A stretch of 34,014 nucleotides of DNA from Deltaproteobacteria bacterium (GTDB taxonomy: Bacteria; Desulfobacterota; Dissulfuribacteria; Dissulfuribacterales; UBA3076), in contig JAUWGF010000002.1 in the NCBI GenBank assembly GCA_030606515.1, forward strand, positions 1 through 34,014. The letters are read 5' to 3'. A program made the translations under genes and the position numbers. The notes beneath the pieces are model-generated. The model searched no databases. It worked only from the letters and a program-made list of their open reading frames with translations, and was not told the DNA's origin. This document shows, one piece after another, positions 12,017 to 27,986 of this stretch; within the stretch, counting starts at the first letter, position 1; every line of letters begins with the position of its first letter.

Positions 12017-12058
12017 AGGTGGTATCGTGTCCGATCCGGCGTCCACCGGAAGGTCCTT

Positions 12059-13000
12059 ATGTCTCGTGTGATTGCCTTGACGGGAGCAACCGGGTTCATA
12101 GGCGGTGTACTGGCACAGCGGCTTGAGGCCGAAGGCTGGCAAGTCAGGGCCTTAGTGCGTCTTTCCTCGGTTAAGGCCCGGCTTACCGGCATGGTCACGC
12201 AGTGGGTGATAGGGGACCTGGAGGACATGGACAGCCTACGCCGTTTGGTTTGCGGTGCAGAAGCCGTCGTGCACTGTGCAGGCGCAGTTCGTGGCGCATC
12301 CCAGGACTATTTTAATCGGGTCAATAGCGCAGGTGTAGCGAGGCTGGCCCAGGCTGCTACAGAAAACTATCCGCCACCGCGCTTTTTGATGATTTCTTCG
12401 CTGGCGGCCCGTGAACCGGACATCTCTCCGTACGCGGCCAGCAAGCGACAAGGTGAAGCCGCATTGGCGGCTACTGCAAAGGAAATGGACTGGACTGTGT
12501 TCCGGCCGCCTGCTGTGTATGGACCCGGGGACAAAGAACTGCTGCCGCTGTTGCGCTGGATAGGACGGGGTATCGCTTTGGTGCCGGGTGCTGGTCATGC
12601 CCGCCGGTTTTCATTGTTATACATAGAAGACTTGGCAGAGGCGGTGATAAGATGGTTGGAAAGCGACAGTTGTGGACAAGATGTATTCGAACTGCACGAC
12701 GATCGTAGCGGCGGATATACTTGGAGTGATGTGATCAAAACGATCGCACTGCTACGCGCCAGACCTGTCCTTCGCGTGCGGGTGCCTGTGACGGTACTTG
12801 CTACCCTGACCAAGCTGAATCTGATGACGGCCAGGATGGTAGGATATGCGCCGATGCTGACCCCTGGAAAATTACGGGAACTTATGCATCCCGACTGGGT
12901 GTGCGATAATACGCCCTTTAGCAAGGCAACCGGATGGAAACCGCAGATTCCCCTGGAAGAAGGCCTGCTGCGTACATTGGGATGGCACGACGAATCTTGA
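12059..13000 (+). CDS. NAD(P)-dependent epimerase/dehydratase-fold reductase, CerR-like (candidate ceramide/3-keto reductase)
   Basis: Rossmann motif ALTGATGFIGG at the N-terminus and a YAASK catalytic Y-x3-K. It sits between the ligase and ACP genes, as in the Caulobacter ceramide cluster. Confidence 0.65.
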   Translation: MSRVIALTGATGFIGGVLAQRLEAEGWQVRALVRLSSVKARLTGMVTQWVIGDLEDMDSLRRLVCGAEAVVHCAGAVRGASQDYFNRVNSAGVARLAQAATENYPPPRFLMISSLAAREPDISPYAASKRQGEAALAATAKEMDWTVFRPPAVYGPGDKELLPLLRWIGRGIALVPGAGHARRFSLLYIEDLAEAVIRWLESDSCGQDVFELHDDRSGGYTWSDVIKTIALLRARPVLRVRVPVTVLATLTKLNLMTARMVGYAPMLTPGKLRELMHPDWVCDNTPFSKATGWKPQIPLEEGLLRTLGWHDES

Positions 13001-13015
13001 AAGGAGCGCGAACCT

Positions 13016-13264
13016 ATGTCACAGTATGAAGACATCCTTGCACAAATCTATCCGGTTCTGCAGCAGCTCGCCCGTGACAAGCAGGAAATCAATGAAGCGA
13101 CGGATTTGGTAGCCGATCTCGGTCTTGATTCTATGGCGGTAATGGAACTTCTACCCGCTATAGAGGACTGCTTCGATATCTCCATTCCATTAAATATATT
13201 GCCAGATGTCCGTACGGTTAAGGACCTTGCTTCACAGGTCCAACAATTGATGCTGGAATCGTGA
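13016..13264 (+). CDS. Acyl carrier protein
   Basis: 82 aa with the phosphopantetheine attachment motif DLGLDSMAVMEL. AAGGAG lies upstream. The stop overlaps the spt start (TGATG). Confidence 0.85.
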   Translation: MSQYEDILAQIYPVLQQLARDKQEINEATDLVADLGLDSMAVMELLPAIEDCFDISIPLNILPDVRTVKDLASQVQQLMLES

Positions 13265-14505
13265 TGGGCATTTTCGACAAGTTCCATCGTCTCGCTACGG
13301 ATCAGCGGGCCCTGGTAGATAGTGGCGTCAATCCTTTTAACGTCGTCATCGAGCGGCTCATTTCGGCAACCGAGGCGATCGTGAACGGACGTCACACCAT
13401 CTTAGCCGGTACCAACAACTATTTGGGGCTTACTTTTGATCCGCAATGTATCGAAGCGGCAAAAAAGGCCGTTCAAGCTCAAGGGACCGGGACGACTGGA
13501 TCACGGATGGCAAACGGGACATATGCTGGTCATGCTGCGTTGGAACGTGAATTTGCAGACTTTTTCGGTTACCGTTCTGCCATCGTATTTTCTACCGGCT
13601 ACCTTGCCAATCTGGGGATGTTGTCGGTCCTGGCGGGTCGCGGTGATACGATTTTGGTAGATGCACACTGTCATGCGAGTATCTATGACGGATGCCGCAT
13701 GGGCAGTGCGGAAATCATTCGATTCCGACATAACAATGTGATTGATTTAGAGAAACGCCTACGACGGCTTGGCAAAAAGACCGCAAATACACTGATTCTG
13801 GTGGAGGGCATCTATAGTATGTTAGGCGACCGGGCCCCTCTGGCAGATATAGTAACCTTAAAGCAGAAATACGGTGCCTATCTACTGGTGGACGAGGCCC
13901 ATTCACTGGGTGTTCTTGGTGAACACGGGCGCGGGCTTCTCGAGGAAGCCGGTGTGGGAAACAGCATGGACTTTATCATAGGTACCTTTAGCAAAAGTCT
14001 GGGCGCAACCGGCGGCTTTTGTGTCAGCAACCACCCTGAATTGGATCTGATTCGCTATGCCAGCCGCCCGTATATCTTTACCGCGTCGCCTGCTCCACCG
14101 GTCATCGCCTCCACCCGGACTGCACTCAAGATACTTAAGACACACCCTGAATTGCGCCGACGGCTCTGGCGTAACGCCCGCCATTTGTATCAAGGTCTTG
14201 ACGATATGGGCTTCAGCCTGGGCCCGGAGATCAGTCCTATTGTTGCAGTCCGCTTGCCGAGTGTAAAACAGGCCCTCGTCCTCTGGGGCAATCTTTTGGA
14301 TCGCGGGGTGTATGTGAATCTGGCATTACCCCCGGCCACACCGGACAGCGCGTCCCTGGTTCGCTGTAGCGTGAGCGCAGCGCATACTCAGGAACAAATA
14401 GACTACATCTGCAAGGTCTTTTCCGATCTGAGAGAAGGTGCCATAACCCTGGATGCGCAGTCAACCGCGGTCGATAGCCCTTTGGATGTTACACCCGCAT
14501 CCTGA
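13264..14505 (+). CDS. spt: Serine palmitoyltransferase (alpha-oxoamine synthase family)
   Basis: The PLP-lysine block is GTFSKSLGATGGF. The long blocks HASIYDGC..AEIIRFRHN..DLEKRL, VEGIYSMLGD, LVDEAHS, RPYIFTAS and YVNLALPPATP closely match my recollection of Sphingomonas SPT, and fit it better than BioF or Kbl. GTG at 13261 is an alternative start. Confidence 0.85.
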   Translation: MGIFDKFHRLATDQRALVDSGVNPFNVVIERLISATEAIVNGRHTILAGTNNYLGLTFDPQCIEAAKKAVQAQGTGTTGSRMANGTYAGHAALEREFADFFGYRSAIVFSTGYLANLGMLSVLAGRGDTILVDAHCHASIYDGCRMGSAEIIRFRHNNVIDLEKRLRRLGKKTANTLILVEGIYSMLGDRAPLADIVTLKQKYGAYLLVDEAHSLGVLGEHGRGLLEEAGVGNSMDFIIGTFSKSLGATGGFCVSNHPELDLIRYASRPYIFTASPAPPVIASTRTALKILKTHPELRRRLWRNARHLYQGLDDMGFSLGPEISPIVAVRLPSVKQALVLWGNLLDRGVYVNLALPPATPDSASLVRCSVSAAHTQEQIDYICKVFSDLREGAITLDAQSTAVDSPLDVTPAS

Positions 14506-14582
14506 ATGTGAGACAGGCGGGTATTGCACGAAGAAGGGCTTATCCTGATTTTTGGAATCTTGGCAATGGCCGGACGCATAAC

Positions 14583-15647
14583 ATGAAGAAGAGAGAAGCG
14601 AGGCCCTTTTGCGAGGTCCATTTCGGCGGTCCTGATATGCCGGCATACTGCTTGCGTGACCTCCTAGCGGAACGTATCGCTGCGGTGCCGCCCGGCGGAA
14701 CCATTGATTGGGTAACATACTACTTTCGTGACCGGATGCTGGCCGAGGAATTAATCCGTGCCCACCGGCAAGGCATCAAGGTTACTGTGACACTGGAGCG
14801 TCATCCTCGAACAGCGTATGCCAATGAGAATGTAATTGGAATGTTGTCTGGCCCGAATGGCTTAGGCGAAGGGTTTCGTACCGTGTCCCTGCAGCGGGTG
14901 CCAACCTCTCCCGGGATAGTTTGGAAACCGCATTTGCATGAAAAGCTCTATTGCTTTTCCCACCCGAGGCCGATTGCCTTTATCGGTTCCTTTAACCCGT
15001 CCGGAAATGGTCCAGGGGATGATCCAGCTATCATAGCTGAAATCGGTGACCAGGATCACGGTCACAATGTCCTGGTTGGGCTTGATGACCCCAGGCTGGT
15101 TGAAAGGCTGGTTGAACATGCCCGGTGGATCCACCAGACGAAACGTATCATGTTCTATCGTTTTTCCCCGACTGCAAACAAAGCGGTGAAAGGGAAGGAC
15201 ACCGATATTTTTTTTTGGCCGCGGATACGGCCGCATCCTGTAATACGGTTTCTCTCACGGCTTGGAGCGGGCGCGCGGATACGAATTGCTGCGTCACACA
15301 TCAAAGGGGCGCCAATCGTCAAGGCCTTGATACGACTTGTCCACAGTGGCGCAATAGTAAAGATATTGGCTGAACCAACACTGAGACGGGTCCCTGTGGG
15401 GGTAGAGCGGATGCTGATTCAAGCCGGAATCCCGTTCCGGCGCGTTATTCATCCTAAGGGTCTTCCGATGCATAACAAGTTCGTGCTTGCGGAGAAGGAT
15501 GGCCGGCGCTGGGTTATTTTCGGCAGCTTTAACTGGACAACTCGATCTTATTGGCTCAATCATGAGATTGGCGCTATTTCCACCAATGATCAACTCTTTG
15601 ATGCGTTTGCCAAGCGCTGGGAGGCCTTGGCAGTTCGCAGGGATTAA
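14583..15647 (+). CDS. Phospholipase D superfamily protein with two HKD motifs
   Basis: HKD-1 is HLHEKLYCF...IGSFNPS. HKD-2 is PMHNKFVLAEKDGRRWVIFGSFNWT. No TM helix is evident. The start is ambiguous (GTG 14508, ATG 14583 or ATG 14637). Confidence 0.75.
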   Translation: MKKREARPFCEVHFGGPDMPAYCLRDLLAERIAAVPPGGTIDWVTYYFRDRMLAEELIRAHRQGIKVTVTLERHPRTAYANENVIGMLSGPNGLGEGFRTVSLQRVPTSPGIVWKPHLHEKLYCFSHPRPIAFIGSFNPSGNGPGDDPAIIAEIGDQDHGHNVLVGLDDPRLVERLVEHARWIHQTKRIMFYRFSPTANKAVKGKDTDIFFWPRIRPHPVIRFLSRLGAGARIRIAASHIKGAPIVKALIRLVHSGAIVKILAEPTLRRVPVGVERMLIQAGIPFRRVIHPKGLPMHNKFVLAEKDGRRWVIFGSFNWTTRSYWLNHEIGAISTNDQLFDAFAKRWEALAVRRD

Positions 15648-15658
15648 AAGCAGCTGTT

Positions 15659-17029
15659 ATGACTATTTCACCTTCAACCCTTATTATTCCGGTAGAGACG
15701 CAAGTCCGGGAGATGGATGCCAAACTTCTCTTGGGTTGTATTGCGGTTGAGAGCGGTTTTCCTGTCATTATAGGCTCACGGGCGTTTCTCCATTTCCGGG
15801 TAGACTCGATTCCGAGGGGCGTTTATCTTGCCAAGAGCATTCGTTCGTTAAGCATTCGTATGTTCGACATCCTGCGCAAGCTTGGTCATGAAATCGTTGC
15901 GTGCGATGAGGAAGGCCTGCTGCGTGAACCAGACCCTGAATATTACCGGTGGCGACTGTCACCTATCACTATGCGGCAAGTCTCCCACCTGATTGCGTGG
16001 GGCCCGGATGACGCGAGCACCTTTCGCAAGTATCCCGGCTATCATGGAGCGGAAATCCATATTACCGGGAATCCCCGCGTCGACTTGATACGGCCGGAAC
16101 TTCGTGAGTTTTACCGGTCAGACGCAGATGCAATTCGTGAACGGTTCGGAGACTTCGTGCTGGTCAACACAAACTTTAGCAAGGTAAACCATTTTTATCC
16201 GGAGCTCAGCGAACTTAAAAAGGCAATGGCAAAAGATGGCACCGATGCGGCGAATCGATTTGATATCGGTAAAGGTCGGCATAAACTTGCCCTTTTTAAT
16301 TACTTTCAGGAGATGCTTCCATCACTTTGTGAGTCGCTGGGTAACTCTAATGTGGTCGTCCGGCCTCACCCGGCTGAGAACCAAGGTCCATGGCATGCCA
16401 TAGCTGCACGGTGTGACAATCTGCATGTGGCAAACGATGGGAGCGTAATTCCGTGGCTGATGGCAGCACAGGCATTAATTGCGAATGGCTGTACGACCCA
16501 AGTGGAGGCTGCAGTGCTCGGCACGCCGACTGTGAACTACCAGCCAGTGAAATCAGAGATGTTCGACTTTGAATTGCCTGGTTTGGTAAGCCGGTGTGTC
16601 TTTTCACTCGATGAACTCTGCACGACGGTTCGTGCCATCGTGAAAGGAAATCTCGGGCTGCTTGATTATGCTGAGCGTCGAAAGATATTGGATCGGCACA
16701 TCGCGGGGCTTGACGGCCCTTTGGCAGCGGAACGGATTATCCAGGTCCTGGAGGCCGGAGGCTACAACAAGAGACAACCCCCGGCTACATCATTGAACGT
16801 CTATGTCCATGGCTGGATCCAAAACCACTTGCGGACAATGTCGAAACGTATCAATATGCATCGACCCGGGCATCGAAATAATCTAGCCTACCATGCCTAT
16901 CGCTTTCCAGATATTTCTGTGTCGGAAATCATGAGAAAGATAGCATGCATGGGAAGATTGCTTAATCGCTTTGAGACCATCAAGGTTACACAGGTATCTA
17001 AGCATATATTCAGGATCAGCATCAATTAA
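15659..17029 (+). CDS. Surface-carbohydrate biosynthesis protein, predicted GT-B-like transferase (paralogue 1)
   Basis: 456 aa, roughly 40% identical by eye to 24175..25569. Shared blocks include LIIP.E.QVRE.D.KLLL, ITGNPR.D, ..N.NFS.VN, RPHP.EN, NGCTT..EA, LDGPLA..RII and GHRNN. The fold assignment is a guess from the alternating pattern. Confidence 0.45.
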   Translation: MTISPSTLIIPVETQVREMDAKLLLGCIAVESGFPVIIGSRAFLHFRVDSIPRGVYLAKSIRSLSIRMFDILRKLGHEIVACDEEGLLREPDPEYYRWRLSPITMRQVSHLIAWGPDDASTFRKYPGYHGAEIHITGNPRVDLIRPELREFYRSDADAIRERFGDFVLVNTNFSKVNHFYPELSELKKAMAKDGTDAANRFDIGKGRHKLALFNYFQEMLPSLCESLGNSNVVVRPHPAENQGPWHAIAARCDNLHVANDGSVIPWLMAAQALIANGCTTQVEAAVLGTPTVNYQPVKSEMFDFELPGLVSRCVFSLDELCTTVRAIVKGNLGLLDYAERRKILDRHIAGLDGPLAAERIIQVLEAGGYNKRQPPATSLNVYVHGWIQNHLRTMSKRINMHRPGHRNNLAYHAYRFPDISVSEIMRKIACMGRLLNRFETIKVTQVSKHIFRISIN

Positions 17030-17042
17030 AGGAGATATTCTC

Positions 17043-18146
17043 GTGTACAGCGTAAAAATCTACGGCGCCGGTTCTATCGGCAACCATTTGGCACATGTCT
17101 GCCGTACCAAGGGGTGGGATGTTCTTATATGCGACATTGACCATGATGCACTGAAACGAACACGCGAGGACATATATCCGTCCCGCTATGGACGCTGGGA
17201 CCCGGACATACTCCTTTCAGAGGCAGATACTGGCTCAGGTGAAGGTTTTGACATGGTCATAATAGGCACCCCTCCGGACACCCACATTAGTGTGGCAACC
17301 AGGGTGTTGGAAAACAACCCACCGAAAGTATTGCTTATTGAGAAGCCTTTGTGTACGCCCTCTCTCGATGGGGTCCAGAGGATTGTCGACCTTAAAAAGG
17401 CCACCGGGACATTCGTTGCGGTCGGTTATAACCATAGCCTGACCGAGAATTCCAGGCGCGCGGCCCGGATTCTTGCAAAAAACACGATTGGCGATCCGAT
17501 CACTATCAGCGCCTGTTTCAGGGAACATTGGGGCGGTATTTTCACCGCCCATCCATGGCTGAGCGGCCCCAAGGACACCTACCTCGGTTTTTCTGAACGT
17601 GGAGGCGGAGCTGGCGGAGAACATTCTCACGCCATAAACATCTGGCAGCGGTTTGCCCATCTTGTTAACGCTGGAAGGATCGTTGAGGTATCCTCCACAA
17701 TGGATGTGGTAGTAGATGGTATTGTTAAATATGACCGGATTTGTCTGCTGAATGTCAAGACCCAGGCTGGTCTCGTGGGAGACATCGTCCAGGATGTGGT
17801 TACTGAGCCCCCGCAAAAAAAGGTGAGAATTCAAGGCTCCAACGGCTTTCTGGAATGGTTTGTCAATCTTGATGGCGGACATGATGCCGTGCGTTACTGG
17901 GATGGAAAAGGAGAGATCATAGAAGAAACAATTCAAAAAACGCGTCCCGACGACTTCAAAGGAGAGATAGACTTTATTGAAGTTATCCTGAACGGAGGGG
18001 ATCCAGCGGACGCTCCCATATCGCTTGAGAGGGGGCTTGAGACCATGCTGGTTATAGCTGCTGCTTATGTCTCCCATCGACACAAGAGAACCGTGAGGAT
18101 CAACTATGACGGGGGATACGGACCCGAGGCCTTTGAGATATCCTAA
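17043..18146 (+). CDS. Gfo/Idh/MocA-family NAD(P)-dependent oxidoreductase
   Basis: GTG at 17043 is preceded by AAAGGAG. N-terminal dinucleotide motif KIYGAGSIGNH. MVIIGTPPDTHISVATRVLENNPPKVLLIEKPL is the family's hallmark block. Confidence 0.7.
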   Translation: MYSVKIYGAGSIGNHLAHVCRTKGWDVLICDIDHDALKRTREDIYPSRYGRWDPDILLSEADTGSGEGFDMVIIGTPPDTHISVATRVLENNPPKVLLIEKPLCTPSLDGVQRIVDLKKATGTFVAVGYNHSLTENSRRAARILAKNTIGDPITISACFREHWGGIFTAHPWLSGPKDTYLGFSERGGGAGGEHSHAINIWQRFAHLVNAGRIVEVSSTMDVVVDGIVKYDRICLLNVKTQAGLVGDIVQDVVTEPPQKKVRIQGSNGFLEWFVNLDGGHDAVRYWDGKGEIIEETIQKTRPDDFKGEIDFIEVILNGGDPADAPISLERGLETMLVIAAAYVSHRHKRTVRINYDGGYGPEAFEIS

Positions 18147-18177
18147 TAAGTGCCCGTCCGGAAACAAGGTAAATTTT

Positions 18178-19701
18178 ATGCACAACTTTAATTTTAACGA
18201 TCTGTTTATTCTCGATCTTGCCAACAACCACCAGGGCGACATGAAGCATGCCCTCAACATCATTAATGCAATGGGTAATGTAACCAGAAAGGCCGGTGTC
18301 CGTGCCGCTTTCAAGTTTCAATTCAGGCAATTGGATACCTTTATTCATCCGGATTACAAACAGAGAAAGGATGTAAAACATATCCCGAGATTCATGGAAA
18401 CGGCCTTGACCGCACAGCAATACGAGACACTTACTAAAGCCGTCATTAAGAATGGGATGCATACGATATGCACCCCGTTTGACGAAGAATCCGTGGACGT
18501 TATCCTTGATTTGGGCATTGAAATTATCAAAGTGGCCAGTTGTTCCGCAAGTGACAGGCCTCTTATTGAACGGATTACCCAGGTGAACAAACCCGTCATT
18601 GTCTCAACTGCAGGGTTAAGCATGGACAAGATAGACAGGCTGGTGAGTTTTCTCGAATCAAGAAACATGCACTTTGCCTTGATGCACTGTGTGGCCATCT
18701 ATCCTACGCCGAACGACAAGCTGAGATTGAATCAGATCAACGTGCTGAAAGAGCGGTTCCCGGACGTGCCCATTGGGTTCTCCACCCATGAGGACCCTGA
18801 CAACTACGCGGCCATTCAAATTGCTTATGGAAAGGGCGCAAGGCTGTTCGAAAGGCACGTAGGAATGGAGACAGAAGAACATAAGTTAAACAGATATTCC
18901 TCCAGACCTGAGCAAATCGCCCGATGGATTGAGGCACACAAACAGGCCGTAGCGGCCTGTGGCGGAAAGCATCGCAGCCCTGCCTCTCCTGAAGAGATTG
19001 CCTCTTTACGCTCACTCATGCGTGGGGTATTCGCAAGGGAGGAGATCAAGAAAGGTGATAAGCTTAAGAGGGACAGGGTCTATTTTGCAATGCCGCTCAG
19101 TGACGGCCAGCTTACAAGTGGCGACTGGTTTGATGGGGTTGAGGCTGACAAGGATTATTCTCCGCACGAGCCTGTAAATATGGCTGTTGCCAACACTGTA
19201 TTGCCCCCGGAAGAGATAATTTACCGCATCATGCTTCAGGTGAAAGGGATGCTCCACAAGGCGAGGATACATATCGGAAAGGACAGCTCCATTGAGTTGT
19301 CCCACCACTATGGTCTTGAACGGTTCAGGGAATTCGGTGCGGTCATCATGAACTGTATCAACCGCAAGTATTGCAAAAAACTAATCATCCAGCTTCCCAG
19401 ACAGAAACATCCCTACCATTTTCATAAAAAAAAGGAAGAAACATTCCAGTTGTTATACGGGGATTTGGAGGTAGAACTGGACGGAAAAAGGATCAAACCG
19501 CAGATAGGGGATACTATTCTGGTAAGACCTGGTGAATGGCATAAATTCCATACCCTTGATGGTGCAATTTTTGAGGAAGTGAGTACCACCCACTTTGATA
19601 ATGACTCTTTCTATGAGGATGATAGGATAGCAAGACTCCCCAGGGAGGCGAGGAAAACAGTCATCTCCAAATGGAATGTAATTGAAAAGCAGGCATCCTA
19701 A
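18178..19701 (+). CDS. NeuB-family ulosonic acid (sialic-acid-like) synthase with SAF region and a C-terminal cupin domain
   Basis: Blocks align to E. coli NeuB: LANNHQGD, KFQFR, CTPFDEESVD, KVASCS, IVSTAGLSMDKI, MHCVAIYPTP, IGFSTHE, FERHVG. A SAF-like region follows (EIKKGDKLKRDRVYFAMP). The C-terminal cupin is HPYHFHKKKEETFQLLYG...GDTILVRPGEWHKFH...EDDRIAR. Confidence 0.8.
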   Translation: MHNFNFNDLFILDLANNHQGDMKHALNIINAMGNVTRKAGVRAAFKFQFRQLDTFIHPDYKQRKDVKHIPRFMETALTAQQYETLTKAVIKNGMHTICTPFDEESVDVILDLGIEIIKVASCSASDRPLIERITQVNKPVIVSTAGLSMDKIDRLVSFLESRNMHFALMHCVAIYPTPNDKLRLNQINVLKERFPDVPIGFSTHEDPDNYAAIQIAYGKGARLFERHVGMETEEHKLNRYSSRPEQIARWIEAHKQAVAACGGKHRSPASPEEIASLRSLMRGVFAREEIKKGDKLKRDRVYFAMPLSDGQLTSGDWFDGVEADKDYSPHEPVNMAVANTVLPPEEIIYRIMLQVKGMLHKARIHIGKDSSIELSHHYGLERFREFGAVIMNCINRKYCKKLIIQLPRQKHPYHFHKKKEETFQLLYGDLEVELDGKRIKPQIGDTILVRPGEWHKFHTLDGAIFEEVSTTHFDNDSFYEDDRIARLPREARKTVISKWNVIEKQAS

Positions 19702-19737
19702 TGTGAGTTTTTAGCTACGTTTCATAACGAGGGTTAT

Positions 19738-20370
19738 GTGGGAATACAAGTAATTGTCTTTGACTTTGACGGAACGCTTATTGACTCAAACCAGTTAAAA
19801 TACGATGCGTATTTTAAACTGTTCCCAGACAATGACCGCCATGCCTCAATCATTCGTGTGGTCCTTTCTGAAATATTTGAACAAAGCCGTTACGTCATCC
19901 TGAAAGAGATTCTCCTGAGACTTGGTTACAGGAGGGATGCGCTTTTAAGGGAAAAAGTCAAAGAGCTGGCCGGGTTTTACAACGCAGTTGTTGTGGCAGG
20001 GGCAAAAACCTGCCCGGAGAAGGCAGGAGCGGAAGAGGCGCTCAGAAAATTTTCGTCGGCATATGGACTATACGTGAGTTCCACCACCCCTGATGCCAAT
20101 CTGAAAGAGATTGTTCGATTCAGAAAATGGGATGGCTATTTTCGTGCCGTGTTTGGATGGCCGAATGAAAAGCATGAGACACTCCGGCGTATCATTGCAT
20201 TAGAAGGGTTGAAAAACGCTCAGGTGCTTGTCGTGGGAGATGGAGAATCCGATAGAGAATCAGCGATGAAAAACGGATGCCCTTTTCTCTTTGTTAACGA
20301 ACGGTTTCGATTCGAGGACCTCGGGAATGCCATGGATGGTCTGTGTATATCAAATTGGACAAAAGGATAA
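19738..20370 (+). CDS. HAD-superfamily phosphatase
   Basis: GTG start. Motif I is VIVFDFDGTLIDS and motif IV-like is VVGDGESD. A cap-domain-sized insert lies between them. Confidence 0.75.
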   Translation: MGIQVIVFDFDGTLIDSNQLKYDAYFKLFPDNDRHASIIRVVLSEIFEQSRYVILKEILLRLGYRRDALLREKVKELAGFYNAVVVAGAKTCPEKAGAEEALRKFSSAYGLYVSSTTPDANLKEIVRFRKWDGYFRAVFGWPNEKHETLRRIIALEGLKNAQVLVVGDGESDRESAMKNGCPFLFVNERFRFEDLGNAMDGLCISNWTKG

Positions 20371-20373
20371 TCA

Positions 20374-21117
20374 GTGCTTGAAAACAAGACCATACTGGTG
20401 GTAGTACCCGCACGCGGTGGGAGCAAGGGCATGAAACTGAAAAACATCCGCAAACTGAACGGTGTTCCCCTCGTTGTCCTTGTCGGACGTGTGGTAAAAC
20501 AGATTCCATACGTGGACAGGGCGGTCGTTTCGACGGATCATGAAAAAATAGCTCAAATAGCAAAGGAAAGCGGCCTGGACGTGCCCTTTATGCGGCCAAA
20601 GGCTTTGTCCGGGGATTTTGTGGGTGACTGGGAGGTGCTCAATCATGCCTTGCTGGAATGCGAACAAATCGATGGAAGACAGTATGATGTCATAGTAATG
20701 CTGCAGCCGACTTCTCCCTTGCGTCAACCAGACCATGTGACGGCATCCATAGAGAAACTCATCAAAGGGGGTTTTGATGCCGTATGGACCGTCAGCGAGA
20801 CAGACGCCAAGGCGCATCCCCTGAAACAGCTTGTAATTCGAAAGGACAACCTGGATTATTATGACCCAGCCGGGGCGAACATAATTGCCAGACAGCAGCT
20901 TACGCCGGTGTACCACAAAAACGGCGTGGCATACGCCATTACCCGGGATTGTATCATCAATAAAAAAAGCATCAAAGGTGATAAGACATCATTTATTTTA
21001 ATCAATGAAATCATGGCAAACATTGATACTGAGTTTGATTTAAGACTGGCTGAATTTATCATTAAGCTGGGTGGCAATTCGAGCCAGCAACCATCCAAGG
21101 CTTCAGGGCACATTTGA
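20374..21117 (+). CDS. Acylneuraminate (CMP-ulosonic acid) cytidylyltransferase, NeuA/KdsB family
   Basis: GTG start 3 nt after the HAD stop. N-terminus ILVVVPARGGSKGMKLKNIRKLNGVPLV, followed by MLQPTSPLR. Both are signatures of the family. Confidence 0.85.
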   Translation: MLENKTILVVVPARGGSKGMKLKNIRKLNGVPLVVLVGRVVKQIPYVDRAVVSTDHEKIAQIAKESGLDVPFMRPKALSGDFVGDWEVLNHALLECEQIDGRQYDVIVMLQPTSPLRQPDHVTASIEKLIKGGFDAVWTVSETDAKAHPLKQLVIRKDNLDYYDPAGANIIARQQLTPVYHKNGVAYAITRDCIINKKSIKGDKTSFILINEIMANIDTEFDLRLAEFIIKLGGNSSQQPSKASGHI

Positions 21118-21263
21118 TCAGACCGTCTTGGACCTCCCATTTTTGGATCCCCCGCCACCCCTGGTTGCCAGGTTGATAGTCTGACCGGAGGATAATCAAA
21201 AATATGACGGCGCGAAATATCAAGATGTTCGGCATCTTAAAAAGCCTCGGCCACGATATCATC
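21108..21263 (+). pseudogene. Relic copy of the leader plus internally deleted 5' part of the 24175..25569 gene
   Basis: 21115-21203 matches 24086-24174 with 5 mismatches in 89 nt by eye. 21204-21263 matches 24355-24414 with 2 mismatches in 60 nt. The junction is the 7-nt word ATGACGG, which occurs at both 24175 and 24355. That corresponds to an in-frame 180-nt deletion. Confidence 0.75.
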
Positions 21264-21330
21264 AGGTTAATGAGTTTCCAAATTTCTGGTCATAATTTTC
21301 AGGAAAGTCTCTACGTTGGGTTTGGAGTGC

Positions 21331-22032
21331 ATGAAGATTAGTGGAGAGTTTAATTTTTTGGCGGCTGGGAGATATTTTATAGCCCTTGATATGCCGCAAA
21401 GAGAGTCTGTGATTAAATTTCTAAGACCCGATGGGCCATTGACTGTCCGGCAAAAAGGGTGGCAGGAATGGTTGCTTGAGCATTTTCGCAGGGCAAAACG
21501 CATTAAGAAGGCCGCTATGGCTGGTCGGGTTTTTCGTATGCTTTATCAGTCAGAGACTATCGATATTTTTCCTTGTTTTCCCGAAACGGAGATTGTCGAC
21601 GAAGTCGATGTTAGTTTTGTATGGGAGGGTCAGACTAACCGGTATCAGGGCCCTGCCTACATTCAACGCCGGGTCGAAGTATTTGGTAATAATACGCCCC
21701 TAGATTCGTTTAATTGGGATGCAATTATTGAAGTCCAGCACTATCTGTGGAGGTCTGGCGTTGGTCTGGGAAGCGGTGCGGAGACCTGGGGACCAAAAAA
21801 CTGGTGTCGCACGAAACAAGATAAGGTCCGGCTGGCTGATCTCAGTAGCTTGACCCAGGACAAGAAACGTGTAGGTAAACGTCTGAACAGTGCAATACGT
21901 CAAAAGCGCCGACAGCAACTGGGACGATTCCAGCCGGTTCGGTGCCGGGAGCACATCGATCCATACCTTGCATATATTGGGGAATATCTTAACCGAGAAT
22001 CGCTTAACCAACTATGGAGAGTGGGATTCTAA
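21331..22032 (+). CDS. Hypothetical protein (orphan, 233 aa, basic C-terminal third)
   Basis: Open frame with GGAG upstream of the ATG at 21331. I recognise no family motif. Coding status rests only on ORF length and the lack of a competing ORF. Confidence 0.4.
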   Translation: MKISGEFNFLAAGRYFIALDMPQRESVIKFLRPDGPLTVRQKGWQEWLLEHFRRAKRIKKAAMAGRVFRMLYQSETIDIFPCFPETEIVDEVDVSFVWEGQTNRYQGPAYIQRRVEVFGNNTPLDSFNWDAIIEVQHYLWRSGVGLGSGAETWGPKNWCRTKQDKVRLADLSSLTQDKKRVGKRLNSAIRQKRRQQLGRFQPVRCREHIDPYLAYIGEYLNRESLNQLWRVGF

Positions 22033-22297
22033 CCGGTTATTTGAGTTATGTTTCGTGATCAGCAATTCACGGTGAAAGCCTATTTTATGTAGATTGCGAA
22101 GCCGTCGCCGTTTCTGGATGCTATCCCGGAAGATCTGTGCAGCACGTTGGACCGCATAAAACCAACGCTTTTTCCCTGTTGTCAAGGCCACGTCATTTCA
22201 CCTACGTTGACGTTTTCCTGACCCTGAATCCTTTAGCCTTGAACCTGGGTATTTACAGCAATTCTTTCGAAAAGAACCAAGAGCCAGGAGGTCTGAA

Positions 22298-22834
22298 ATG
22301 ATTCGATTATGCACATTTCGTTCAATCAGCACTTACATTTTTATCCTTGTTTGCGTCATGATGGCTGTTCCATCCAAGTCCTTTTCCAAAGATCTAGAGA
22401 CCAGACATGTATTTAGGATCGAACGGAGCAAGAATGCCAATATCGTTCAATATGACGTTCAGTTGACACCTGACGGAAAGATCTATTCGAAGGAAGCAGT
22501 AATTGCCTACTGGATCAGACTGGCTAAGGACGGACAGCGAAAGGAACTCTCATCCACTCAAAGAAGGTGGGCCTATGGGTTTAAGACCAAATACGACGCC
22601 AAGGGCAACTTCGCTATCCTAGAGATGAGGGCTAAAATCGGTCGAAAAATCAAGGTCTATCCGGTAGATAGTGTATATCGCGGAGAGACCAGGATCGACG
22701 ACCAACCGGCCTTTATTGAGAAAATCTATATTACAACGATTGAAGGTGGAATGCTTCCAAAGGTTCAATCCATTGGGTTGTATGGGAAAGACATATTAAC
22801 AGGTGAGGACAGGTACGAGAACATCAAGCCTTAG
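22298..22834 (+). CDS. Small secreted protein, possibly DUF4833-like
   Basis: A strong AGGAGG lies 7 nt upstream. The N-terminus is a hydrophobic signal-like segment (ISTYIFILVCVMMAVPSKSFS). The blocks FRIERSKNANIVQYDV and AYWIRL..DGQRKEL...R.WAYG resemble my memory of DUF4833. The family call is tentative. Confidence 0.5.
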   Translation: MIRLCTFRSISTYIFILVCVMMAVPSKSFSKDLETRHVFRIERSKNANIVQYDVQLTPDGKIYSKEAVIAYWIRLAKDGQRKELSSTQRRWAYGFKTKYDAKGNFAILEMRAKIGRKIKVYPVDSVYRGETRIDDQPAFIEKIYITTIEGGMLPKVQSIGLYGKDILTGEDRYENIKP

Positions 22835-22897
22835 GCAACCCAAAATATTAAGAATTCGATAGAATTTTTCCTTAATCGGTTGGAAAGGCTGAGCTTA

Positions 22898-23791
22898 CTA
22901 TTCTTCTTTTTGAATCTCCTTTTGCAGTTTTTCGGAGCCCCACGAGTACACAATTCCCACTCCCGCCAGGAACTGATTTTCGTCGTCAACAATGGGGCTG
23001 TCCGAAGCGTCACCAATTAGCCGCTTGTATTGGAGGCTAAGCGCGAGTCTCAAATTTTTCCGAAGACGGATGCCGGAAGTCAGTTTGATCCCGATGTCTT
23101 TTATACCGGAGTCGGCATCGAATTCCTTGAGCCCTGATCGTGCTGACTCTTTTGCACTGACACCGAAAAAGTTTTCCATGTAATCATCGCTTGCCCACGT
23201 GGTCTGTAACATTGCAAGGAACAAGGGCTTATCAAACGGGATTCCAACCCCGGCGCCCGCTTCTATGAGAGCACCCTCATGACCAGAGCCTGTGTCTTGA
23301 CGGATATCCAACTCGAAGCGGAATGGCTTTTTCCTGTATTTGACAAAACCACCGACAGCGAAGCCGCCGTCTACATCGTCTAGACCTTCGAGCTTGTCAT
23401 TGTCGTCCTCATCCCGGCCAGAACTCTTTGCGACGAGTGGGCCAGCTCTCCAGGCACCCCGCCTCAGGAGGTTCGCACCAAGAGTCTTCCCTTTGAACCA
23501 GATCAAGTCTTTCCAGGTGATGGAAATGTCTGGACCCATGCCAAACTCATAGTCGTTGGAACCTTCGTAATCGGGGGATACGCCGCCGATAACACCGACC
23601 TTCACCACCCAGTTGCGAAGGCGATCCTCCGGGTCCTCGTAGCCCGGGGCTTCATCTATGTCTTCCGCCACCTCTTCCCAAACGTCAGCTTTGTCAATGG
23701 TGTTGTCGGACTTTGCGGTGTTGACATGGAGTATAAAGTTGAATAAAAGAGCCACCATACAGATAATAGGGAAACAAATAGATCGACTCAT
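22898..23791 (-). CDS. MipA/OmpV family outer-membrane protein
   Basis: Signal peptide present. FFGVSAKESARSGLKEFDA closely matches E. coli MipA YYGVSRKESARSGLRGYNP. The GDASDSPIV block and the C-terminal aromatic residue are typical. GAGGG lies upstream of the ATG. Confidence 0.75.
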   Translation of the reverse strand: MSRSICFPIICMVALLFNFILHVNTAKSDNTIDKADVWEEVAEDIDEAPGYEDPEDRLRNWVVKVGVIGGVSPDYEGSNDYEFGMGPDISITWKDLIWFKGKTLGANLLRRGAWRAGPLVAKSSGRDEDDNDKLEGLDDVDGGFAVGGFVKYRKKPFRFELDIRQDTGSGHEGALIEAGAGVGIPFDKPLFLAMLQTTWASDDYMENFFGVSAKESARSGLKEFDADSGIKDIGIKLTSGIRLRKNLRLALSLQYKRLIGDASDSPIVDDENQFLAGVGIVYSWGSEKLQKEIQKEE

Positions 23792-24085
23792 ATGAACCCT
23801 CTACTATTTAACTTGCTCAACTCTTATTAAGACTCCTTATTAAAATGAAGGAGCGTCAGGCCTCCAGATATACTTCTGGGACCTTGTCCTTGACTACACA
23901 AGACTTTCATCAACCAAGAGCGCGATTAATGCTGGAGGATGATTAATGAGAAGCATATTCGGATAAGATCAAATAAAATGCCTTTTTGAAAACTATTATG
24001 GCGTATTTGGGTTTGTTGTCAAGAATAACCCCTACCTATAACAGAAAGTTTTTCCGTAGGCAGTGGTTCCATAGTTATGCGCATC

Positions 24086-24174: not shown

Positions 24175-25569
24175 ATGACGGAAAAAAGAGCACCGCTGAT
24201 CATTCCCATGGAAAGCCAAGTGAGGGAACTGGATCCGAAACTTTTGCTTGCCTGTGTTGCCGCCGAACGCGGGTTTACTGTATTCCTGGGTTCGAAAACA
24301 GAAGTGGGACTCCGTATTGCCTCTTTTCCCAGATCCATATATTTAGGCAAGAGCATGACGGCGCGAAGTATCAAGATGTTCAGCATCTTAAAAAGCCTCG
24401 GCCACGATATCATCGTATGGGATGAGGAAGCCCTAGTCCACCATTCCAAGGAACAGTATTACGGGCGGCGGCTCGACCCCAAGACGCTGGAGCAGGTGAG
24501 TGCGTTGCTTGCCTGGGGTCAAGAAAACTATGAGCTGTTCAAGGAATATCCAACGTATTCAGATACGCCGATCTACATCACCGGAAACCCACGTGGAGAT
24601 ATGATGCGCCCTGAAGTTCTTCCCTTTTACGAACCTGAGGCAGAATCGATTCGCAAACGATTCGGTGAGTTCATTTTGATCAACACAAATTTCAGTATGG
24701 TGAATGGCTTTCTCCCTAGCCTGAATCTGCGCAACCCGGGAGCCAAGCCCGATGCCCCGACCCAGGCCGGTACAGCCGCGAGGGGATTAACACCGGAGTT
24801 TGCGGAGGGTTGGGCAAACCACAAGCAGGCCATATTCGAGCATTTTAAACAGCTTATCCCATTACTGAGTAAAGCCTTCCCGGACCATACCATTGTAATT
24901 CGGCCCCATCCGGTGGAAAATCATAATGTGTGGCATCAGCTTGCCGAGCCATACGACAACGTCAAGGTCATCTACCAGGGCAATGTTCTCGCCTGGCTGA
25001 AAGCGGCCAAGGCGGTCATTCACAACGGGTGTACAACAGGAATTGAGGCCTTCATTGTCAAGTTGCCCGCAATTGCTTATCGGCCGGTAACCGCCAAAAT
25101 TTACGATTTAGACCTGCCCAATTCGCTGAGTTATGAATGCTTCGATTTTGAAGAGCTTTGTCAAACCCTCAAAAGGATACTGAGCCGCAAACTCGGCCCT
25201 CCCGATACGATTGAACGACGGCAGCTTATCGATTATTATATATCGGCACTGGACGGTCCTTTAGCCTGCGATCGAATCATCGACGTGATTGAACAGCGTG
25301 AAGCAAGTCTATCCGGGCTGCCATGGCCTGGGTTGAGGTCATATCTGAAAGGCTGGATCAAGGCAAATATTCGCAGTTATAAAAAACGCTATATCAAATC
25401 AAAGCTCTCCGGACACCGCAACAATCCTGATTACTTGAGCCAGCGCTTCCCTGGCGTATCCGTTGATGAAGTCAGGTCTCGAATCAATCGCTTCTTTCGG
25501 AACCTGGACAGATTTAAGGATGTAAAGGCTAATCAGTTTTCTAAGAATATTTTTCAAATCCATATATGA
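24175..25569 (+). CDS. Surface-carbohydrate biosynthesis protein, predicted GT-B-like transferase (paralogue 2)
   Basis: 464 aa. It is collinear with 15659..17029 along the full length (see the blocks listed for that feature). Confidence 0.45.
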   Translation: MTEKRAPLIIPMESQVRELDPKLLLACVAAERGFTVFLGSKTEVGLRIASFPRSIYLGKSMTARSIKMFSILKSLGHDIIVWDEEALVHHSKEQYYGRRLDPKTLEQVSALLAWGQENYELFKEYPTYSDTPIYITGNPRGDMMRPEVLPFYEPEAESIRKRFGEFILINTNFSMVNGFLPSLNLRNPGAKPDAPTQAGTAARGLTPEFAEGWANHKQAIFEHFKQLIPLLSKAFPDHTIVIRPHPVENHNVWHQLAEPYDNVKVIYQGNVLAWLKAAKAVIHNGCTTGIEAFIVKLPAIAYRPVTAKIYDLDLPNSLSYECFDFEELCQTLKRILSRKLGPPDTIERRQLIDYYISALDGPLACDRIIDVIEQREASLSGLPWPGLRSYLKGWIKANIRSYKKRYIKSKLSGHRNNPDYLSQRFPGVSVDEVRSRINRFFRNLDRFKDVKANQFSKNIFQIHI

Positions 25570-25715: not shown

Positions 25716-26555
25716 TCACAGTCTGTGCTTGAGTGTATGACGTCTTATGCGCTGACTTTTCCTGAGTATTGAGTGCCAAAGCGGAATTTTTCTCCTTCCA
25801 GTATGATATATGGAATTATAGACCTTCCAAAAACGCCACATATCCTGCCTGGTTATGTATTGGGCCGAGGAAAAGTGCAGTTGGGCAAGGTCCTTTACCT
25901 GCCATCTCCAGGACAGTCTCCTGTGACGTTTCACACGCTGGAGATCTATGAGGGTCAGGGGGAGGCCGTCCTGTTCTGAGCCGCACAGAAAGTGGCAAAG
26001 GTATAGATCCTGGTGGTGCAGTCCCGCTGAGTGCATCCTCCCCACGATATCCGCCACATCTTTAATTATTTTCCGCTTTGCCGGAATGGCTTGTGTGTTT
26101 CTATGAGACCCTTTTCCAAAATTCCTTTCTGCCCACTCACTGAGTCTCATCACATGACTTACACCCTCAGAAAGGACCAAAGAAGGCCCACCATCCTGCC
26201 CCCAGGCTACTGGAACAGGCCCTGGAAGGCCAAGCTGCATGAAGGTCCACATGGCATGCCATTCCTGTCCAGCACCAGGAGCCGGACGCTTTAGTCTGAG
26301 ATATGCCTTTAACCCGTCCCGTACTGTAGGAGGTACATAGCGTTTAAGGAAAAAAGACTTTTTTTCTCCGCTCTCTGTTTCGAGATCAAGTCGAACAGTA
26401 TTTCGTTCTTTAATAGCACACTTTGCCACCGCGTGTCCCGGGTGTGACATCAACGCCTTAAAAGTCGTGAGATCATGGGACTCAAGGAGCGGGAGAAACG
26501 CCCTGTTGACTTCAAGCCTGCCTCCATCTAACGACGTAATCCTCGAGTCATCCAT
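25716..26555 (-). CDS. Lipopolysaccharide kinase (Kdo/WaaP/InaA) family protein
   Basis: 279 aa with an InaA-type catalytic loop (GLHHQDLYLCHFL) followed by TLIDLQRV. Confidence 0.75.
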   Translation of the reverse strand: MDDSRITSLDGGRLEVNRAFLPLLESHDLTTFKALMSHPGHAVAKCAIKERNTVRLDLETESGEKKSFFLKRYVPPTVRDGLKAYLRLKRPAPGAGQEWHAMWTFMQLGLPGPVPVAWGQDGGPSLVLSEGVSHVMRLSEWAERNFGKGSHRNTQAIPAKRKIIKDVADIVGRMHSAGLHHQDLYLCHFLCGSEQDGLPLTLIDLQRVKRHRRLSWRWQVKDLAQLHFSSAQYITRQDMWRFWKVYNSIYHTGRRKIPLWHSILRKSQRIRRHTLKHRL

Positions 26556-27969: not shown

Positions 27970-27986
27970 CGATTCGATGCATACCT

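Follow-up and report, generated by a model that had tools for sequence, protein, structure and literature searches.

A NeuB-cupin fusion in a recurrent four-gene cassette predicted to make a CMP-activated ulosonic acid without amino groups, most likely Kdn or a close relative

Four genes lie on the + strand between positions 17043 and 21117 of the window, the 34,014-nucleotide stretch of DNA analysed here, and are separated by intergenic gaps of 3-36 nt. They encode, in order, a Gfo/Idh/MocA-family oxidoreductase, a synthase with NeuB, SAF-like and cupin parts, a HAD phosphatase and a NeuA-type cytidylyltransferase, which confirms the gene order and positions given in the initial annotation. 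A particular feature of this locus is that the cassette sits within a ceramide-lipid operon, in a host that is a cold-seep sulfate-reducer relative. The first gene (17043..18146, 367 amino acids) has a GTG start preceded by AGGAGA, and its product matches PF01408 (E 5.8e-9) and PF22725 and carries the GxGxxG and EKP motifs of an NAD(P) oxidoreductase. No close characterised relative of this protein was found in the PDB, where the best match has an E-value of 2e-5.

The synthase gene (18178-19701, + strand) belongs to an open reading frame that begins at 18106. We placed the true start at 18178, giving 507 amino acids, because the 120 best homologues listed are nearly all 500-515 residues long and most are exactly 507. 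Residues 1-334 (18178..19179) comprise a NeuB TIM barrel (PF03102, E 3.5e-41) and a SAF-like domain, and are predicted to form a PEP-condensing ulosonate synthase. The SAF-like segment is real although weakly matched by Pfam (PF08666, E 0.21, 12.6 bits), since the NeuB-SAF structure 3G8R aligns through residue 321 (E 1.8e-92; 45% identity by Foldseek). By comparison, Neisseria meningitidis NeuB aligns to residue 306 with ~26% identity. Ten Neisseria NeuB residues are kept in the synthase (K53, Q55, K129, S132, S154, Y186, S213, H215, E234 and H236), and five are replaced (E25 by D, E134 by S, N184 by A, D247 by N and R314 by M). Arg314 contacts the N-acetyl group in the Neisseria enzyme, and Met is invariant at this position in the NeuB-cupin family.

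The remainder of the protein, residues 335-507 (19180..19701), consists of a helix and a cupin domain, predicted to be a metal-dependent aldose-ketose isomerase. The presence of an extra C-terminal cupin, as first proposed, is borne out by matches to Cupin_2 (PF07883, E 1.9e-8 to 1.1e-7) and by a confident domain model (pLDDT 94.5) with a metal-binding sugar-isomerase fold. Its proposed likeness to type II phosphomannose isomerases did not hold, as PF01050 gives no match to the synthase even at E<=10. Instead, the domain scores 28-33 bits against Lyx_isomer (PF07385), above the cut-off of 20.8. Its PDB sequence matches include 7NZO (E 1.7e-6) and 2Y0O (E 3.7e-5), and the ten best Foldseek matches to the model are all D-lyxose isomerases (TM 0.61-0.76), with the compact Bacillus subtilis and Thermofilum enzymes at 0.71-0.76.

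The Thermofilum enzyme has eight listed sugar- or metal-contacting residues, of which at least seven are identical in the cupin. K62, H75, H77, K86, E88, H143 and E156 correspond to K401, H414, H416, K419, E421, H455 and E467, where the H143-H455 pair is not matched in the printed alignment and was placed by hand on the PxxxHxF motif. Across 94 representatives, six of the seven matched positions are invariant or nearly so, and the H75 position is H or Q. An Arg aligned with Thermofilum R175 is invariant in a close-family alignment of 26 sequences. Sequence, modelled fold and contact residues together mark the domain as a full-length D-lyxose/D-mannose isomerase. In addition, the SHHYG, R489 and R492-K493-T494 motifs are invariant in the NeuB-cupin family and absent from lyxose isomerases; these could form a phosphate site. 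In most complete proteins seen, this cupin domain stands behind NeuB and SAF domains, and candidate free-standing forms are few.

The third gene (19738..20370) encodes a 210-residue capped HAD-IA phosphatase (HAD_2, E 2.6e-14) that exceeds the TIGR01549 HAD-SF-IA-v1 cut-off and carries DFDGT and GDGESD motifs. No KdsC/YrbI-type models are among its profile matches; the Bacteroides Kdn-9-phosphate phosphatase is of the KdsC/YrbI type. The fourth gene (20374..21117) encodes a 247-residue NeuA/PseF-type CMP-ulosonate synthetase with a PARGGSKG motif (CTP_transf_3, PF02348, E 4.3e-23). Its PDB matches are CMP-Neu5Ac synthetases (E 1e-24 to 2e-15), with KdsB at 4e-5, and it scores 126 bits with the PseF model against a cut-off of 205.7.

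No fewer than 352 species genomes from many phyla, including Bacillota and Actinomycetota, carry the NeuB-cupin fusion, and its recurrence is far beyond chance. A literature search found no paper on this architecture, in agreement with the original impression that it lacks a characterised precedent. Linkage was counted only at loci whose flanks allow scoring, which sets the denominators at 71, 63, 57 and 42. A Gfo/Idh/MocA gene adjoins the NeuB-cupin gene co-directionally in 66 of 71 loci, a HAD phosphatase gene follows within 3 kb in 51/63 and a cytidylyltransferase gene lies downstream in 60/63; all three partners are present together in 45 of 57. Roughly one locus in five lacks the HAD gene, as do the phage copies of the cassette. 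Every partner is moreover found covalently joined to NeuB-cupin: the oxidoreductase in a Gfo-NeuB-cupin order (P0286, P0292 and P0297), the HAD domain at the C-terminus in six representative proteins, and the CMP-transferase at the N-terminus in eight. Carbamoyltransferase and methyltransferase genes, both of types that tailor hydroxyl groups, are inserted in the cassette of other genomes.

Two TIGR04396 genes accompany the cassette. The product of 15659..17029 (+ strand), a 'surface carbohydrate biosynthesis protein' (TIGR04396, E 2.4e-107), is an accessory candidate CMP-ulosonate transferase that also matches, weakly (E 5.7e-14), the BFO_1060 family of Tannerella transferases for Pse/Leg derivatives (PMC5420450). 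A second paralogue lies at 24175..25569 (+ strand; E 1e-115), and in close relatives it directly follows the cytidylyltransferase gene (loci L012, L013, L018, L020 and L027). Of the 42 long-flank loci, 28 carry a TIGR04396 gene no more than 10 kb away.

The domain identities, the intact motifs and catalytic residues, the linkage across phyla and the covalent fusions support a predicted logic of isomerase, PEP-condensing synthase, phosphatase and CMP-transferase, from which we infer the sequence of reactions, the starting sugar and the product. We consider it probable that the four genes form one pathway whose product is a 3-deoxy-2-ulosonic acid, free of amino groups and activated with CMP, most likely Kdn or a close relative. 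In such a pathway, the cupin, as a Mn/Zn-type member of the lyxose/mannose family, would convert a central ketose to the matching manno- or lyxo-configured aldose, most likely fructose-6-phosphate to mannose-6-phosphate. Within the same protein, the NeuB barrel would condense the aldose irreversibly with PEP, and so pull an unfavourable isomerisation forward. The HAD enzyme would then strip the terminal phosphate from the ulosonate-phosphate, the NeuA-like enzyme would convert the free ulosonate to CMP-ulosonate, and TIGR04396-type transferases would pass the sugar to a surface acceptor. We judge the chances evenly balanced that phosphate is removed after condensation, as this order proposes. 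The oxidoreductase probably tailors the sugar, giving an epimer or a keto form, or else prepares the substrate, although this is only a guess.

The Kdn-type pathway first suggested for this locus thus keeps its enzyme logic, and is favoured by the invariant Met at Arg314 and by the hydroxyl-directed tailoring genes seen elsewhere; across loci, the regular cassette neighbours include no NeuC, dehydratase, epimerase, aminotransferase or acetyltransferase. The type of phosphatase does not fit that suggestion, and its absence from some loci also counts against the proposed pathway, as does the near-constant oxidoreductase, for which a Kdn route has no need. The idea that the fused cupin serves to supply mannose-6-phosphate is weakened as well, because a canonical type II phosphomannose isomerase is encoded separately in the host genome and such a supply is therefore not required. 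The lyxose isomerases studied so far, moreover, take sugars without phosphate.

A tentative alternative, which we hold to be possible but a good deal less probable, is that the HAD enzyme acts first on fructose-6-phosphate or another ketose phosphate, the cupin turns free fructose into mannose, and NeuB joins free mannose with PEP to give Kdn directly. The substrates of the cupin's nearest characterised relatives are indeed free sugars (lyxose, mannose and fructose), bacterial NeuB, PseI and LegI use unphosphorylated substrates (PMC6200933), the HAD gene is dispensable at about 20% of loci and in the phage copies, and the Kdn locus of Serratia consists of neuA and neuB alone. However, a phosphatase that hydrolyses fructose-6-phosphate would drain central metabolism, and the cupin carries the invariant motifs, absent from lyxose isomerases, that could form a phosphate site. 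In every ulosonate pathway with a dedicated phosphatase that we know of (Kdo, Kdn and animal Neu5Ac), this step follows condensation. It is unlikely, though still worth weighing, that the product is some other and possibly undescribed ulosonic acid, such as eight-carbon 3-deoxy-D-galacto-octulosonate made from xylulose(-5-phosphate) via lyxose(-5-phosphate), or an epimer or keto-derivative of Kdn determined by the oxidoreductase. Lyxose-preferring enzymes give the best alignments to the cupin, which retains the Arg that excludes hexoses in Thermofilum, the oxidoreductase is left unexplained by a plain Kdn route, and both synthase and cytidylyltransferase fall under every NCBIfam equivalog cut-off. 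Yet the E. coli lyxose isomerase accepts mannose despite an equivalent Arg (PMC8378251), in Serratia the analogous NeuB with a fused isomerase is associated with Kdn, and a cytidylyltransferase far nearer to NeuA than to KdsB favours nine carbons.

Public annotation as an 'N-acetylneuraminate synthase family protein', together with NeuB and PseI as best NCBIfam matches, would suit a classical N-acylated (Neu5Ac/Pse/Leg-type) synthase with a non-catalytic or regulatory cupin appendage. This is very improbable: the synthase reaches only about one third of each cut-off (143.5 bits against 399.65 for NeuB and 122.4 against 340.25 for PseI), amino-sugar genes are missing from the cassette, a search of the host genome found no second NeuB, Met replaces Arg314, and the cupin's metal ligands and catalytic Lys/Glu are strongly conserved across phyla. 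The four activities also parallel Kdo-pathway logic, with the cupin for KdsD, NeuB for KdsA, HAD for KdsC and the NeuA-like enzyme for KdsB. Such a non-homologous CMP-Kdo analogue is scarcely credible, as a canonical KdsA (368 bits, exceeding its cut-off) and a KdsB-like protein are encoded elsewhere in the genome, Bacillota and Actinomycetota also carry the cassette, and arabinose is not lyxo/manno-configured.

The closest solved relative of the NeuB-SAF part, 3G8R, is a Chromobacterium violaceum 'probable spore coat polysaccharide biosynthesis protein E'. The ANNH motif and the SCS and AxY substitutions of the synthase are found in it as well, but it lacks the cupin, and to our knowledge no function has been reported for it. 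The cupin in turn shares the whole fold with N-terminal helix, the metal ligands and the catalytic Lys/Glu with the lyxose/mannose isomerases TsLI (7NZO), YdaE (2Y0O) and E. coli Z5688 (3KMH), at 23-24% identity to the first two and 18% to Z5688 (TM 0.61-0.63). It differs in lacking a six-residue loop between the HxH and KxE motifs and in its extra invariant SHHYG and RKT motifs.

Bacteroides thetaiotaomicron and Prymnesium parvum make CMP-Kdn with a Kdn-9-phosphate synthase, a phosphatase and a CMP-Kdn synthetase (PMC6200933). The cassette resembles these precedents in combining a NeuB-family synthase (BT1714 in B. thetaiotaomicron), a phosphatase and a NeuA-family cytidylyltransferase without amino-sugar genes, so that a nitrogen-free product is expected. 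Unlike these pathways, it has an isomerase fused to the synthase, a capped HAD-IA phosphatase and the oxidoreductase as a constant fourth member, and its phosphorylated substrate is only predicted. A further Kdn precedent is the Serratia marcescens KL1/KL2 capsule, which contains Kdn and Neu5Ac at ~20:1 and requires neuB, a 2241-bp ORF whose product combines NeuB with a COG1082 sugar-phosphate isomerase/epimerase domain (PMC9000132). There too the synthase polypeptide includes an isomerase-type domain, and NeuA is the only partner; the added domain, however, has a TIM-barrel (xylose-isomerase-like) fold rather than a cupin, and the NeuB part of a protein of Serratia-type architecture (P0304; NeuB, SAF and PF01261) is only 30% identical. 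For these two reasons, the likeness between Serratia NeuB and NeuB-cupin is convergent and does not reflect shared membership.

Four co-directional genes with intergenic gaps of 3 to 36 nt occupy window 17043-21117. The first (17043-18146) begins with a GTG start behind an AGGAGA box and encodes a Gfo/Idh/MocA oxidoreductase (PF01408, E 5.8e-9; PF22725) with GxGxxG and EKP motifs. A close characterised relative of this protein was not found, and the only ESM Atlas matches were generic Gfo/Idh/MocA clusters. The second gene encodes the 507-aa synthase fusion. Although its open frame opens at 18106, the 120 best homologues listed are almost without exception between 500 and 515 aa long and most have exactly 507 aa, and therefore the ATG at 18178 is taken to be the true start. 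A HAD-IA hydrolase with DFDGT and GDGESD motifs (19738-20370) and a NeuA/PseF-type cytidylyltransferase with a PARGGSKG motif (20374-21117) complete the cassette. The initial annotation of the four genes, including the synthase start, was confirmed.

The NeuB domain expected in the synthase was recovered by PF03102 (141.7 bits against a cut-off of 22.1, E 3.5e-41), and the synthase part aligns with 3G8R, a crystal structure of a NeuB and SAF protein (E 1.8e-92; Foldseek identity 45%). The proposed SAF-like segment fared unevenly: its Pfam match is weak (PF08666, E 0.21), but the alignment with 3G8R runs through residue 321. This segment can also be aligned to the AFP-like domain of Neisseria meningitidis NeuB. 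The metal and PEP residues of the Neisseria enzyme (H215, H236, E234, K53, K129, S132, S154 and S213) are identical in the fusion (H204, H227, E225, K46, K118, S121, S143 and S202), and Q55 and Y186 are likewise kept. The metal-binding His pair, the catalytic Glu and the PEP-binding Lys and Ser residues are invariant in a 26-sequence family alignment. Five positions of Neisseria NeuB carry a different residue throughout the family (E25D, E134S, N184A, D247N and R314M). The position of R314, which we take to contact the N-acetyl group from the SAF/AFP domain of the neighbouring subunit, is Met305 in the fusion and is invariant, leaving the family without this Arg. Mutant structures of the Neisseria enzyme are available (PDB 4IPI and 4IPJ). 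Scores against the NCBIfam equivalogs for NeuB (TIGR03569, 143.5 bits against a cut-off of 399.65) and PseI (TIGR03586, 122.4 bits against 340.25) fall below threshold. Judged by sequence, the synthase is a NeuB-family enzyme outside the characterised Neu5Ac and Pse synthase groups, and an N-acetylated substrate appears unlikely.

The C-terminal domain, which matches PF07883 (E 1.1e-7), had been compared with type II phosphomannose isomerase (PMI) cupins. This identity was dropped because the isolated domain has no match to PF01050 even at E≤10 and scores 32.8 bits against the D-lyxose isomerase model PF07385 (Lyx_isomer), above the gathering score of 20.8. The nearest solved proteins by sequence are the D-lyxose isomerases of Thermofilum (TsLI, PDB 7NZO, E 1.7e-6) and Bacillus subtilis (YdaE, PDB 2Y0O, E 3.7e-5). 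The expectation that the region folds as a cupin was borne out by a domain model built on 94 representatives (mean pLDDT 94.5), in which the predicted lyxose-isomerase fold spans the whole domain and for which Foldseek ranks 1-10 are D-lyxose isomerases without exception. The model superposes on the B. subtilis and Thermofilum enzymes with TM scores of 0.71-0.76 over 164-181 columns, N-terminal helix included, and with an rmsd of 1.9-2.6 Å in all chains but one. In contrast, the larger E. coli lyxose isomerase yields lower TM scores (0.61-0.63), and the match to small archaeal PMIs is limited to a barrel core of 88-98 columns.

In TsLI, Mn and the sugar are held by K62, H75, H77, K86, E88, H143, E156 and D163, and mutation of the equivalents of K86, E156 and D163 abolishes lyxose-isomerase activity (PMC8378251). 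Residues were matched after applying an offset for the TsLI chain, which is shifted by 24 residues in the PDB file relative to the published numbering. The Mn ligands H75, H77, E88 and H143 correspond to H414, H416, E421 and H455 of the fusion, with the H143/H455 pair placed by hand on the PxxxHxF motif, where the printed alignment is out of register. K62, K86 and E156 correspond to K401, K419 and E467, and D163 corresponds to either D474 or the invariant D476, the alignment being ambiguous by two residues. These aligned contact residues are invariant or nearly so in representatives down to 35% identity, except for H414, which is Gln in some. Because the Mn and sugar contacts are kept and conserved, the cupin looks like a working aldose-ketose isomerase for lyxo- or manno-configured sugars. 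Relative to lyxose isomerases, the cupin carries additional invariant residues, namely SHHYG (375-379) and, at the C-terminus, R489 and R492-K493-T494; that these form a phosphate site is only a guess. The genome encodes its own type II PMI elsewhere (190.8 bits), and therefore the fused isomerase would be unneeded for the mere supply of Man-6-P.

The cassette is widespread and conserved. A pattern scan with one genome per species placed the fusion in at least 352 genomes, with carriers including Desulfobacterota, anammox Planctomycetota, Kiritimatiellia, Verrucomicrobiota, Bdellovibrionales (Bdellovibrionota) and Halobacteriovorax, as well as many Hyphomicrobiales, Bacillota, Actinomycetota, Bacteroidota, Marinimicrobia and Patescibacteria. 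Identity across carrier phyla ranges from 57 to 100%, and the carriers include isolates in culture, among them Desulfofustis glycolicus DSM 9705, whose protein is 65% identical to the 507-aa synthase fusion. Occurrence within the window's own genus is patchy (3 of 18 genomes searched), and 16 of 401 sampled genomes from its phylum carry the fusion, the window's own being included in both counts; complete copies of the domain in this sample of the phylum are all fused. Candidate free-standing cupins, when aligned, share too little conserved sequence to guide a metagenome scan, and a scan with the single protein P0142 gave one 26-residue match, without cassette genes. The fusion was not found in the plasmid collection or the GenBank phage collection. 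An IMG/VR contig (L094, UViG_3300027902_000148) encodes the oxidoreductase, the NeuB-cupin protein and the cytidylyltransferase at 939-4173 but no HAD enzyme, and these proteins are 45-56% identical to those of the window. It is a phage contig with genes for a terminase, head closure, a tail-sheath stabiliser and a tail sheath, and two further loci, L093 and L095, likewise carry the fusion.

Linkage was counted in the 80 best loci, using only those with enough flank for each count. The oxidoreductase gene adjoins the fusion and is co-directional with it in 66 of 71 loci, a HAD gene follows it within 3 kb in 51 of 63, and a cytidylyltransferase gene accompanies it in 60 of 63; the full set of three partners is present in 45 of 57, and a TIGR04396 gene occurs nearby in 28 of 42. 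MsbA-like ABC exporters, GT2 and GT4 glycosyltransferases and sulfotransferases are recurrent further neighbours, whereas genes for a NeuC-type epimerase, a 4,6-dehydratase, an aminotransferase or an acetyltransferase are not regular members of the 80 loci. A search for longer relatives revealed proteins fused to additional partners (P0283-P0300): the oxidoreductase at the N-terminus (P0286, P0292 and P0297), the HAD domain at the C-terminus (six representatives), or the cytidylyltransferase at the N-terminus (eight representatives, some with an extra PF01467 domain). Another NeuB-cupin multi-domain protein, P0302, has an added SDR epimerase/dehydratase domain. In some lineages, a NodU/CmcH-type carbamoyltransferase or a SAM methyltransferase gene lies between the synthase and cytidylyltransferase genes, and in one lineage SDR and DegT aminotransferase genes are inserted in the cassette. 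These tailoring-gene insertions (L034 12235-14481, L035 11546-13264, L073 5063-5932 and L043 11557-13705) imply that the sugar is O-carbamoylated, O-methylated or aminated in a lineage-specific manner.

The predicted activities of the cassette are thus an isomerase, a PEP-condensing synthase, a phosphatase and a cytidylyltransferase, plus the oxidoreductase, which a plain Kdn route does not require. We propose that the fused cupin isomerase would feed the NeuB synthase in a Kdn-like route, and that irreversible PEP condensation would pull the isomerisation forward. Alternatively, the substrates may be free sugars rather than phosphorylated ones, given that the lyxose isomerases studied act on free sugars and that the HAD gene is missing from about one-fifth of loci and from the phage copies. 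However, to our knowledge, in ulosonate pathways with a dedicated phosphatase, dephosphorylation always follows condensation. The phosphatase itself matches TIGR01549 and HAD_2 (HAD-IA) and has an insert of approximately 80 residues after motif I, and the KdsC/YrbI model is absent from its matches. The Kdn-9-P phosphatase of Bacteroides is presumably a cap-less C0 enzyme of the KdsC/YrbI type, and the cassette, having a capped HAD-IA enzyme instead, therefore does not belong to the Bacteroides Kdn-9-P pathway on phosphatase type. Despite this difference, its working logic may be the same.

The cytidylyltransferase (PF02348) matches CMP-Neu5Ac synthetase structures at E 1e-24 and KdsB structures only at E 4e-5, which favours a nine-carbon sugar. 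This disparity also bears on whether the cassette is a replacement CMP-Kdo pathway that provides the Kdo of the cell. Such a role is unlikely, as the genome has canonical KdsA and KdsB-like genes at other sites. An eight-carbon product derived from a pentose may be formed instead, since an Arg that is invariant in the close family alignment aligns with Thermofilum R175, a residue that excludes hexoses in TsLI (PMC8378251); the NeuA-like match of the cytidylyltransferase argues against this product. Overall, the KDN-type phosphosugar pathway suggested by the initial annotation is partly supported: the Kdn-like enzyme set stands, with a NeuA-family CMP-ulosonate synthetase and a locus without amino-sugar genes, but the PMI-type cupin and the Bacteroides-type phosphatase do not.

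In the window, the cassette forms the end of a co-directional string (10088-21117) in which it is preceded by genes for a fatty acyl-AMP ligase, an SDR reductase, an acyl carrier protein, a serine palmitoyltransferase, a two-HKD PLD-like protein and a TIGR04396 protein (15659-17029, forward strand). The serine palmitoyltransferase scores 640.6 bits against NF047599, the beta-proteobacterial SPT equivalog, above its cut-off. Upstream on the other strand are genes for a GNAT-like 414-aa protein and two NTP-transferases, one resembling inositol-1-phosphate cytidylyltransferase, and further upstream is a gene for a 437-aa CDP-alcohol transferase with weak phosphatidylinositol-phosphate-synthase matches (E 1e-11, far below model cut-offs). 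This ceramide-type gene set (8720-15647, 1411-3704 and 7030-8723), together with the inositol and CDP-alcohol genes, suggests a phosphoceramide, possibly inositol-containing, that the ulosonate could decorate. Both TIGR04396 paralogues, the second of which lies at 24175-25569 on the forward strand, weakly match a Tannerella forsythia family of transferases for Pse/Leg derivatives (PMC5420450). This match and the ceramide gene surroundings make a lipid acceptor, possibly a phosphoceramide, plausible in the window's organism. Among the 80 loci, a serine palmitoyltransferase gene is near the cassette in three, all close relatives, and a PLD-like gene accompanies it in 12; the CDP-alcohol transferase gene occurs with the cassette in three further Desulfobacterota loci (L021-L023), along with 323-aa and 238-aa ORFs. 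A less likely reading is that the sugar is itself undescribed, for instance an epimer of Kdn modified by the oxidoreductase or an eight-carbon ulosonate derived from lyxose, and that the two TIGR04396 transferases attach it to a ceramide-based lipid. The lipid in question could be an inositol-phosphoceramide whose synthesis depends on the cytidylyltransferase and the CDP-alcohol transferase encoded nearby.

Genes for the LPS core and for sphingolipids are mixed in the window, which is an outer-membrane lipid island. LPS-type genes surround the lipid operon, comprising three of the WaaP/Kdo-kinase family, two GT9 heptosyltransferase-like genes and lptF/lptG (287-1150, 25716-26555, 31363-32931, 26884-29474 and 4665-6915). 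Adjoining the heptosyltransferase genes is a gene for a B12-binding radical SAM protein (29541-31058) with weak matches to HpnJ, HpnR and 'lipid biosynthesis B12-binding/radical SAM' proteins, which are of the hopanoid or lipid methylase type.

Among public records, the closest are Desulfobacterales MAGs from cold seeps (L011, 100% identity; L012, 97%), one with 'SeepSRB2' in its contig name, and the stretch is present in cold-seep metagenomes from 12 studies. Of the 30 bins that span the whole operon, metatranscriptome contigs from two runs of one study cover 29 and 28, which fits in-situ transcription, with DNA carry-over in these contigs being possible. Promoter and terminator scans of 9800-22400 gave counts not above those of shuffled sequence. 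When contigs were placed on this same stretch, which leaves out the 24175 gene, three runs yielded loose ends at 21263, past which the contig sequence is exactly that of window 24415-24444. Most simply, these are contigs of the 24175 gene placed on its 60-nt relic copy rather than a strain variant. This continuation fits the proposal that window 21108-21263 is what remains of a second copy of the 24175 gene, corresponding to its 5' end. The gene corresponding to the second paralogue, TIGR04396b, lies directly 3' of the cytidylyltransferase gene in five relatives (L012, L013, L018, L020 and L027), and thus window 21264-24085 looks like an insertion.

If our reading is true, much of the Kdn-like acidic sugar reported from environmental biofilms and granular sludges probably originates from this cassette, a source that has gone unrecognised. 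A permanent isomerase-NeuB fusion would be a simple case of an irreversible condensation drawing an unfavourable isomerisation forward. Because serine palmitoyltransferase and further ceramide genes belong to the same gene string as the cassette, an acidic glycosphingolipid is predicted, which would belong to a partner bacterium of methane-oxidising consortia. Such a ulosonate-decorated ceramide lipid, if real, would be the equivalent, in a bacterial relative of cold-seep sulfate reducers, of gangliosides or of the GIPCs of plants.

Literature searches for NeuB with lyxose isomerase, nonulosonic with cupin, and sialic acid synthase with cupin or sphingolipid returned nothing relevant. Known phosphate-passing ulosonate routes have the isomerase, synthase, phosphatase and cytidylyltransferase set in common with the cassette, in which the oxidoreductase is extra. 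In Bacteroides thetaiotaomicron and Prymnesium parvum, Man-6-P and PEP yield Kdn-9-P, which is converted to Kdn and then to CMP-Kdn (PMC6200933). An independent precedent for an isomerase-fused NeuB is found in the KL1 and KL2 capsule loci of Serratia marcescens, where the 2241-bp neuB ORF includes a COG1082 'sugar phosphate isomerase/epimerase' domain, is required, and occurs in strains with a Kdn:Neu5Ac ratio of approximately 20:1 (PMC9000132). Another protein of this architecture, P0304 (631 aa), joins NeuB and SAF domains to a xylose-isomerase-like TIM barrel (PF01261) and provides a second isomerase-NeuB fusion, independent of the first; a match with a 631-aa frame in the window's own order (L005, G040:C223:8447-9226) is a candidate for the same architecture. 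The NeuB part of P0304 is only 30% identical to that of the window, and therefore the Serratia-type and NeuB-cupin fusions are convergent. The Kdn-like reading is favoured because the set of activities, the Bacteroides and Prymnesium route, the NeuA-like cytidylyltransferase and the Serratia precedent all agree.
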